Of a stretch of 64,000 nt of DNA, positions 47,193-47,808 are shown piece after piece. The stretch lies in the sequence record PV018828; one strand, given 5' to 3'. A program made the position numbers and the translations under genes. Below the pieces are notes generated by a model. The model saw only the letters and a list, made by a program, of their open reading frames with translations, did no database searches and was not told the DNA's origin. The DNA is from Escherichia phage YW01. How positions within the stretch are numbered: position 1 is the first letter of the stretch; each line of letters opens with the position of its first letter.

Positions 47193-47402
47193 TCAGTAGT
47201 AAATTACTTTAGACATAAAAGAACCAGTGTTAGGGTCTTCATACCAGCGATGTATGTCAGCGCTTTTTAATATTGTGCCCAGAGTCTTCAACTGTTTCTT
47301 AGCAATACGAGCCTCTTTGCGAGTGTCAAACAATTTGATGTTATCTTTTCTCATGTGTTGCTCAAGATCCCAAACAACATGAATAGCCCACATCTTTTTC
47401 AT
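47193..47402 (-). CDS. Small protein, member 3 of a three-gene tandem paralog array (69 aa)
   Basis: Shares W ... F-x-TR-x2-AR-x2-KK ... (V/I)(Y/H)Y C-terminus with the two upstream genes; start codon shares a nucleotide with the upstream stop. Confidence 0.45.
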   Translation of the reverse strand: MKKMWAIHVVWDLEQHMRKDNIKLFDTRKEARIAKKQLKTLGTILKSADIHRWYEDPNTGSFMSKVIYY

Positions 47403-47611
47403 TAGTAATGTACCTTTCCGCTGATATAAACACGACCAGAAGAATACTCCTTGGCCTTATGGATACTGATACTATTGACCACGTCACCAGTAAGCATAGT
47501 CTTTTTAAAATCTCGAGCTTGTTGGCGAGTGGGCAGTGCGGTCATAGTCATACCACCTGATGCCCACTTAATCTTTGCTAACCAAAATTGTCTCATAGTG
47601 ATCGGTCTCAT
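47402..47611 (-). CDS. Small protein, member 2 of a three-gene tandem paralog array (69 aa)
   Basis: Paralog; 1-nt stop/start overlaps on both sides. Confidence 0.45.
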   Translation of the reverse strand: MRPITMRQFWLAKIKWASGGMTMTALPTRQQARDFKKTMLTGDVVNSISIHKAKEYSSGRVYISGKVHY

Positions 47612-47808
47612 TAATAATAAACCTTGCTGTTGGCAAAAAGAGCACCTTCGTTATTCACAACAGCTTTCCCTATTGTAACCTTATTGAGTCTAAAAGTAGA
47701 CTTGTATTGGTTTTTGACCCTACGAGCGTGCTCTCGAGTCTTAACAAAATCTACAGCTACTAACTCTCCAGTCGTGTTATCATGTACACGAACAATCCAC
47801 TTTTTCAT
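47611..47808 (-). CDS. Small protein, member 1 of a three-gene tandem paralog array (65 aa)
   Basis: Paralog; immediately downstream of the dCTP deaminase gene. Confidence 0.45.
   Translation of the reverse strand: MKKWIVRVHDNTTGELVAVDFVKTREHARRVKNQYKSTFRLNKVTIGKAVVNNEGALFANSKVYY

Follow-up and report, generated by a model that had tools for sequence, protein, structure and literature searches.

Among the described systems closest to the small phage proteins considered here are the Ocr, ArdA and Ugi type of anti-restriction protein, the T4 Dmd antitoxin, and the small anti-CRISPR proteins AcrIF9 and AcrIIC3. A likeness of another kind is that to the AP2/ERF domain, in which a beta-hairpin is followed by a Thr-capped helix ('W-x-A/V-x-I/V ... 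L-G/F-x-T-x-E-E-A') and which contacts DNA through its sheet, not through its helix (1GCC). The genes under study, called A, B and C, lie in a window of 64,000 nucleotides of Escherichia phage YW01 (PV018828), this window being the whole stretch of DNA that was analysed. Since its region 46000-49800 shares 98% identity with TH38 and EC.W2-6, two Escherichia phages, and 93% with phiEco32, the window phage is identified as a Kuravirus (Gordonclarkvirinae). The comparison with Ocr, ArdA and Ugi is invited by the fact that these are small early phage proteins and that the phage group of the window shows an unexplained resistance to RM (PMC11990801). However, Ocr, ArdA and Ugi are acidic and mimic DNA, whereas the isoelectric point of the family to which A, B and C belong ranges from 9.66 to 10.91 and its net charge from +5 to +12 (median +8) in 31 of the 31 aligned members. 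A DNA-mimic anti-restriction function is ruled out by this opposite charge, and the pI of about 10 found in all members points instead to the binding of nucleic acid or of an acidic surface.

The original prediction had described three tandem ORFs of 65-69 aa, and these are confirmed as intact ORFs on the minus strand (Table 1). A, B and C are 88-97% identical to gp71, gp70 and gp69 of phiEco32, whose genes (phi32_71, phi32_70 and phi32_69) are all annotated as 'hypothetical protein' and are located between the dCTP deaminase (phi32_72) and the conserved hypothetical phi32_68. A literature search for gp69-71 or phi32_69-71 found neither functional work on these genes nor any naming of them.

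Table 1. Position of the three paralogs, of the signals around them and of the neighbouring genes in the window
Feature	Position	Strand	Remarks
Paralog A, 65 aa	47611..47808	minus	intact ORF; phiEco32 gp71 ortholog; ATG right after the dcd stop (TAAATG)
Paralog B, 69 aa	47402..47611	minus	intact ORF; phiEco32 gp70 ortholog; ATG overlaps the A stop (TAATG)
Paralog C, 69 aa	47193..47402	minus	intact ORF; phiEco32 gp69 ortholog; ATG overlaps the B stop (TAATG)
dCTP deaminase (dcd, phiEco32 gp72)	47809..48342	minus	upstream gene, same coupled run; PF22769 DCD recorded for orthologs
gp68 homolog, 109 aa, conserved hypothetical	46791..47120	minus	downstream flank; used as rate control
Shine-Dalgarno-like AAAGGTGTG	47812..47820	minus	within the last dcd codons, upstream of the A start; read from the sequence
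AAGG	47622..47625	minus	within the C-terminal K-V-Y-Y codons of A; 10 nt upstream of the overlapping ATG of B
AAGG	47413..47416	minus	within the C-terminal K-V-H-Y codons of B; 10 nt upstream of the overlapping ATG of C
AATGTATA, core of the gp36-dependent promoter motif	47160..47167	minus	in the 72-nt gap between C and the gp68 homolog
Sigma-70-like site	47203-47176		near AATGTATA at 47160-47167
Nucleotidyltransferase, 472 aa	48352-49770	minus	immediately upstream of dcd
Dps/ferritin-like protein	46235-46846	minus	two genes downstream of the paralogs; PF00210 in orthologs
Thioredoxin	45708-45986		
HNH homing endonuclease	45251-45721	minus	PF13392 HNH_3 and C-terminal AP2-type DNA-binding domain; between thioredoxin and ThyX, overlapping both
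ThyX	44626-45282		

The genes dcd and A are adjacent with no overlap, while the A/B junction reads ...TAT TAT TAATG... with one nucleotide in common (47611), the B/C junction reads ...CAT TAC TAATG... with again one nucleotide in common (47402), and C is the last gene before the intergenic gap. The predicted stop/start overlaps of 1 nt are thus present as TAATG at both junctions, the one between A and B being dependent on which start B uses. An in-frame ATG at 47594-47596 would give a 64-aa protein with the family-typical N-terminus MRQFW, and the 5-codon N-terminal 'extension' that precedes it varies in the sequences of relatives, where GGAG or AGGA is found upstream of the internal Met. If B uses this internal ATG, A and B are spaced by 14 nt and do not overlap. 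The junction AAGGTnYAYTAYTAATG recurs in the loci of divergent relatives, meaning that the stretch coding for K-V-(Y/H)-Y at the end of one gene supplies its successor with both the Shine-Dalgarno-like AAGG and the stop/start overlap. Although no gene is coupled downstream of C, and its Lys codon is AAA, C ends in V-I-Y-Y, which indicates that the C-terminal motif is also constrained at the protein level. Such a translational coupling would deliver the A, B and C proteins together.

Regarding expression, CDS69-125 of SU10 were classed as early and CDS25-68 as middle by homology with phiEco32, a promoter being placed ahead of CDS68 and no terminator being found at the end of the early genes (PMC4281155), and the consensus of the gp36-dependent middle/late promoters of phiEco32 is tAATGTAtA (PMC8948821). 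Six exact copies of its core AATGTATA occur in the window, namely the one behind C and those at 42959-42966 (-), 35744-35751 (-), 35817-35824 (+), 25566-25573 (+) and 8989-8996 (+), compared to a mean of 2.7 in shuffled sequences, 5 of 100 shuffles reaching six. The SU10 classes and the AATGTATA copy after C together indicate that A, B and C close a long early unit, whose order is primase/helicase, exonuclease, nucleotidyltransferase, dCTP deaminase and then, at the promoter-distal end, the three small genes. In the proteomics of SU10 lysate, CDS65, 67 and 68 were detected and CDS69-71 were not, a weak negative given that small Lys/Arg-rich proteins are poor tryptic targets.

That the similarity between A, B and C would be an effect of chance or composition, or that the ORFs would not be genes, has practically no probability left. 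The pair A-C is what could be held in favor of such a reading, since its BLASTP E-value is 0.28 and its Smith-Waterman score is reached by 187 of 5000 shuffles, so that this pairwise similarity is marginal. The real scores of A-B (BLASTP E=8e-6; Smith-Waterman 59 vs 21.9 +/- 4.0 in shuffles) and B-C (E=7e-5; 55 vs 23.0 +/- 4.2), by contrast, were never reached in 5000 shuffles, and the phrog_4939 profile is matched by A, B and C with E-values of 4.5e-27, 6.8e-28 and 2.1e-28, over positions 1-67 or 2-67 of its 67. Paralogy is therefore real, A and C being tied through B and through the family profile, and the similarity above chance that the original prediction presupposed stands for A-B and B-C, the A-C pair on its own being not significant. 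Chance similarity and unreal ORFs are likewise refuted by the conservation of the orthologs at a dN/dS of at most 0.30, by confident AF2 models, and by the junction and ribosome-binding architecture kept across relatives. Judged from their sequences, A, B and C are thus ancient paralogs and members of PHROG 4939. This PHROG is the family itself, already grouped in databases without an assigned function, and mechanistic novelty is not demonstrated: the descriptive picture is solid, and the mechanism is what we infer from it.

What A, B and C have in common without exception is a W, TR-x2-AR-x2-K and a final Y. The predicted motif holds for these elements, whereas F-x-TR is exact in C only (A having F-x-x-TR and B lacking the F) and the second K is absent in A. 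A search of all six-frame ORFs of the window with the family HMM yielded no further copy beyond the three.

In terms of structure, two independent AF2 models (A: pLDDT 89.6, pTM 0.75; B: pLDDT 81.2) share the same topology, and each protein is predicted to be a single domain of about 65 residues with a beta-beta-alpha-beta-beta order. Among 31 diverse members, W4, R25 and R29 are invariant, and T24, A28, K32 and the C-terminal Tyr (Y65) are conserved in at least 90%. The invariant Trp sits on strand 1, while the helix is Thr-capped and bears the TR-x2-AR-x2-K stripe, in which the spacing of R25, R29 and K32/K33 (i, i+4, i+7/8) would bring the basic residues onto one helix face. Within the groups it is mainly three regions that vary, namely the loop from beta1 to beta2, the loop between the helix and beta3, and the beta3-beta4 hairpin, whereas the W strand, the TR-AR-K helix and the C-terminal end remain constant.

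The best explanation of these features, to be taken as tentative, is that ancient paralogs act as accessory nucleic-acid-binding proteins. Nucleic-acid binding is the most economical reading in view of the uniform positive charge, the invariant Arg-Arg-Lys helix face with its flanking aromatics, and a weak AP2-like signal. The constant basic face would bind nucleic acid, either DNA or RNA, and the variable loops would give each paralog its own specificity. Nevertheless, an acidic host protein would be just as possible a ligand of the basic surface, searches of Pfam, NCBIfam and PDB sequences with the single proteins and with the family alignment or profile returned no match, and the SU10 counterparts are missing from the lysate proteomics, which is a weak argument. 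Two resemblances considered as leads were rejected. The first is that to bS21, suggested by 'ARRFKR'-like motifs and the C-terminal Tyr, for which neither Pfam Ribosomal_S21 nor a PDB bS21 sequence was matched at E up to 10; bS21 is moreover largely helical, as opposed to the largely beta fold predicted for the family. The second is DUF2188 (PF09954), suggested by 'W-x-V ... T-K-x-E-A', whose Pfam model matches 0 of the 31 members at E up to 10.

The AP2-like signal arises from a weak match (E=0.0057) of the family HMM to the C-terminal part of an HNH endonuclease encoded on a related contig. This C-terminal domain, once aligned from the HNH enzymes of the phage group, is a bona fide AP2/ERF domain (WRI1, 5.7e-11; 1gcc, 2.4e-8), and hhalign relates it to the family with 79% probability (P=1.5e-5) over 34 columns. 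In the resulting register, the W strand falls on AP2 strand 2, the second strand on AP2 strand 3, and T-R-x-x-A-R on T-x-E-E-A; four separate subfamily profiles give the same register (P=1.5e-3, 0.045, 1.7e-4 and 8.4e-4), compared to P=0.24-0.54 for reversed controls. However, the Pfam AP2 model (PF00847) gives no match at E up to 10, either with the 3 window proteins or among the 31 members, and the AP2 segment used by itself in a word-based homolog search retrieved nothing. An AP2 sheet consists of three antiparallel strands followed by the helix, with (Y)RGV in strand 1, while in the AF2 models the helix comes between two pairs of strands; superposing the structure on solved AP2 domains did not bring the family into agreement with them either. 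The family thus differs from AP2/ERF in that the first strand (YRGVR) is absent, in that a C-terminal hairpin is added, and in that its specific conserved basic residues are on the helix, AP2 making its DNA contacts via the sheet. As far as nucleic-acid binding is concerned, the likeness spans the hairpin and the Thr-capped helix only and may be convergent. Either a remote relationship or a convergent hairpin-helix motif is possible, which makes the AP2 likeness a lead and not a membership.

Two readings build on this lead. According to the first, which is improbable, A, B and C would be stand-alone DNA-binding modules descended from the AP2 domain of HNH-AP2 homing endonucleases and kept at insertion hot spots, with the occupation or protection of homing sites as one possible role. 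Besides the profile comparison with the phage's own HNH enzymes and the agreement of the register across four subfamilies, it is consistent with the occurrence, in the window, of an HNH gene in the very slot between thioredoxin and ThyX where NJ01, KBNP1711 and others have a distal family copy, and with the HNH gene found between dcd and the family array of ES17, EcoN5 and the contig L029, all three of which miss copy A. Yet a hot spot shared with homing endonucleases is to be expected for any accessory gene, and the absence of a Pfam AP2 match, the missing first strand and the added hairpin argue against such a descent. If the proteins were AP2-like DNA binders, they would offer an example of a homing-endonuclease DNA-binding module persisting as a free protein. 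The second, to which equally little probability is given, is that they are miniature, stand-alone DNA-binding proteins of AP2-like type, specific to Gordonclarkvirinae and diversified through cassette exchange, which could coat or mark the phage DNA or occupy nuclease target sites, and so could contribute to the resistance of the group to RM and other defences.

A word-indexed search with the alignment of the three proteins gathered 92 clusters, all of 64-87 aa, with long contigs of about 77 kb. An exhaustive hmmsearch of 1.84 billion representative proteins gave 21 matches, 20 of which are single-domain proteins of 64-79 aa; the remaining one, P0110 (648 aa), was discarded as a false positive, being a low-complexity repeat protein. 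All contigs long enough for their context to be read have one gene order, of the Gordonclarkvirinae type: primase/helicase, exonuclease, nucleotidyltransferase, DCD, the small genes, the 109-aa gene, ferritin/Dps, thioredoxin and ThyX. The two contigs holding P0108 are excluded from this reading, as they are too short to judge. As far as the readable context goes, the family is restricted to Gordonclarkvirinae-type phages. A Foldseek search against BFVD retrieved, besides the family itself, weak matches to uncharacterised proteins from related phages.

The mutual identity of A, B and C is only about 25%, and single-linkage clustering with a threshold of 50% identity places them in three groups, an A-type of 40, a C-type of 38 and a B-type of 20 sequences, each with one window paralog, to which at least 17 further sequence types are added. 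From this low identity and the three separate orthologous groups, it follows that the triplication predates the Kuravirus radiation, and the recent or local amplification put forward in the original prediction does not stand. The copy-number variation to be looked for among related phages was found: the stretches scanned hold 1 to 4 family copies each, at two hot spots, the dcd site and the interval between thioredoxin and ThyX. SU10, NJ01 and XT73 retain A-B-C, but a 68-aa ORF that is unrelated to the family has been inserted in front of A; a fourth, distal copy lies in the thioredoxin-ThyX interval of NJ01 and KBNP1711; ECBP2 and EK010 combine two copies next to dcd with one or two distal ones; ES17 and EcoN5 have no A, its place being taken by the HNH gene and other small ORFs. 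The metagenomic relative L003 holds three extremely divergent copies, and the 88-90 kb relatives L008 and L009 a single weak copy each. The distal family member of the thioredoxin-ThyX slot is seen in NJ01, KBNP1711, ECBP2, EK010 and several metagenomic relatives.

The small genes are also unstable one by one. Compared to the window, KBNP1711 is 96% identical for dcd, 91% for gp68, 52% for A, 52% for B and 97% for C, and SU10 is 99% identical for dcd, 100% for gp68, 68% for A, 88% for B and 97% for C. Stable flanks around unstable small genes indicate a mosaic, copy-by-copy exchange, which may take place at the same intergenic hot spots that take up homing-endonuclease genes. In addition, some C-type alleles, such as P0083, have a B-like C-terminal hairpin, which suggests exchange between paralogs. 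P0072 and P0085 are 79-aa variants of A with an altered 3' end, in which the conserved SKVYY C-terminus is lost, and EcM-vB1 (L021 1769-2008) has an A-like ORF, annotated as 79 aa, that overlaps B and aligns over 59 residues only. These altered ends reflect either natural disruption or sequencing error. With its 3' end altered in some relatives, A appears dispensable as far as sequence comparison can tell, and the three proteins would be accessory and not essential, given that A is absent or 3'-disrupted in some isolated relatives and that single copies are swapped like cassettes.

For orthologs of at least 80% identity, the dN/dS (NG86) is 0.20 for A, 0.13 for B and 0.30 for C, against 0.08 for dcd, 0.05 for gp68 and 0.055 for Dps in the flanks, the paralogs being 2-6 times more relaxed. 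In close pairs of similar dS, the dN of A reaches 0.02-0.06 vs 0.002-0.007 for dcd, that is, a protein-level rate roughly 8-25 times that of dcd. The values of 0.13-0.30 indicate real coding genes under a purifying but relaxed selection, and no gene-wide positive selection was found by NG86. On the whole, what had been observed about the locus is borne out, since the paralogs A, B and C form a coupled tandem array, vary in copy number, and change, both in identity and in dN/dS, much faster than their neighbours; what falls is the recent, local amplification and, if the selection invoked is understood as positive, that claim as well.

This rapid evolution bears on the proposal that A, B and C are anti-defence or host-takeover inhibitors, each neutralising one protein of the host, for instance a nuclease or a defence effector, and that their diversification and cassette exchange would track variable host targets, a proposal that is possible, although rather unlikely. 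Arguing for it are the small size of the genes, their early class, their restriction to one lineage and their varying copy number, together with a protein-level rate well above that of dcd at similar dS, the mosaic replacement of single copies, and the swapping of the C-terminal hairpin among alleles and across paralog types; in addition, the Gordonclarkvirinae are reported to be remarkably RM-resistant, with no mechanism known for it (PMC11990801). Nevertheless, the selection measured is purifying, all members are basic, in contrast to the DNA-mimic inhibitors, which are acidic, the structural matches are of a generic kind, and the genes are located at the far end of the early unit, beside replication and nucleotide-metabolism genes and not among promoter-proximal takeover genes. 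Besides, one invariant basic stripe runs over about 20 very divergent types, which suggests a common conserved ligand instead of many host proteins. Nucleic-acid binding and anti-defence are mutually compatible and not exclusive.

The position behind dcd raises the question of whether A, B and C serve dCTP deaminase or the CCA-adding-like nucleotidyltransferase as accessory or regulatory subunits, within a hetero-oligomer whose stoichiometry would be set by coupling. The tight coupling to dcd (TAAATG, then two TAATG overlaps) and the synteny of dcd and the array across Kuravirus and Suseptimavirus are in line with such an arrangement. It is nonetheless improbable, and the regulation of an adjacent enzyme is unlikely, because the small proteins undergo replacement or loss next to a dcd and a nucleotidyltransferase that stay 93-100% conserved, and because family copies are also found between thioredoxin and ThyX, away from dcd. 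ES17 and EcoN5, moreover, keep B and C though their dcd is a 59%-identical allele, and the Grimontviridae relatives examined have dcd without a family member beside it. Small ORFs beside dcd in Salmonella SE131, Cronobacter GAP52 and Aeromonas LAh_8 were rejected as family members, as they do not have the family motif.

Gordonclarkvirinae are common, broad-host-range coliphages of therapeutic interest. A family that is lineage-specific in the readable context, multi-copy, fast-evolving and uncharacterised, in phages that are reported to be RM-resistant (PMC11990801), is a reasonable candidate to test, and the existence of K-12-infecting representatives (Bas86-93) makes deletion and complementation feasible. 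For the time being, the finding amounts to an ORFan family that is well documented, and not to a new mechanism, and is of moderate interest as an experimental target.

Several observations concern the neighbouring genes. A 68-aa ORF, MNKEEFQELKYLTTDAQ..., is located between dcd and A in SU10 (gp072; L002 2806-3012), NJ01 (L004 4035-4241) and XT73 (L022 2494-2700) and is absent from the window; its insertion in some Kuraviruses identifies the junction between dcd and A as an insertion hot spot. SU10 gp072 was considered as a fourth paralog and rejected, being unrelated to the family. In EcoN5 and ES17 (L013 and L016; 2501-3055), the dCTP deaminase is 59% identical to that of the window while gp68 and Dps are 98-100% identical, and the sequences point to an allelic replacement of dcd together with the adjacent HNH gene. 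The nucleotidyltransferase has a weak PolyA_pol/CCA-adding head domain (E=7.5e-4, below the gathering score). For dcd and this nucleotidyltransferase, the BASEL paper speculates that they might make a DNA modification (PMC11990801); the phage-encoded ThyX fits an ordinary dTTP supply pathway instead. Downstream, the gp68 homolog has no Pfam or NCBIfam match, is detected by mass spectrometry in SU10 lysate, and is far more conserved than A, B and C, with 91-100% identity within Gordonclarkvirinae and 31-33% in Salmonella SE131 and Cronobacter GAP52. Finally, the Dps/ferritin-like gene is labelled 'integrase', 'DNA-binding protein' or 'ferric iron binding protein' in GenBank records.
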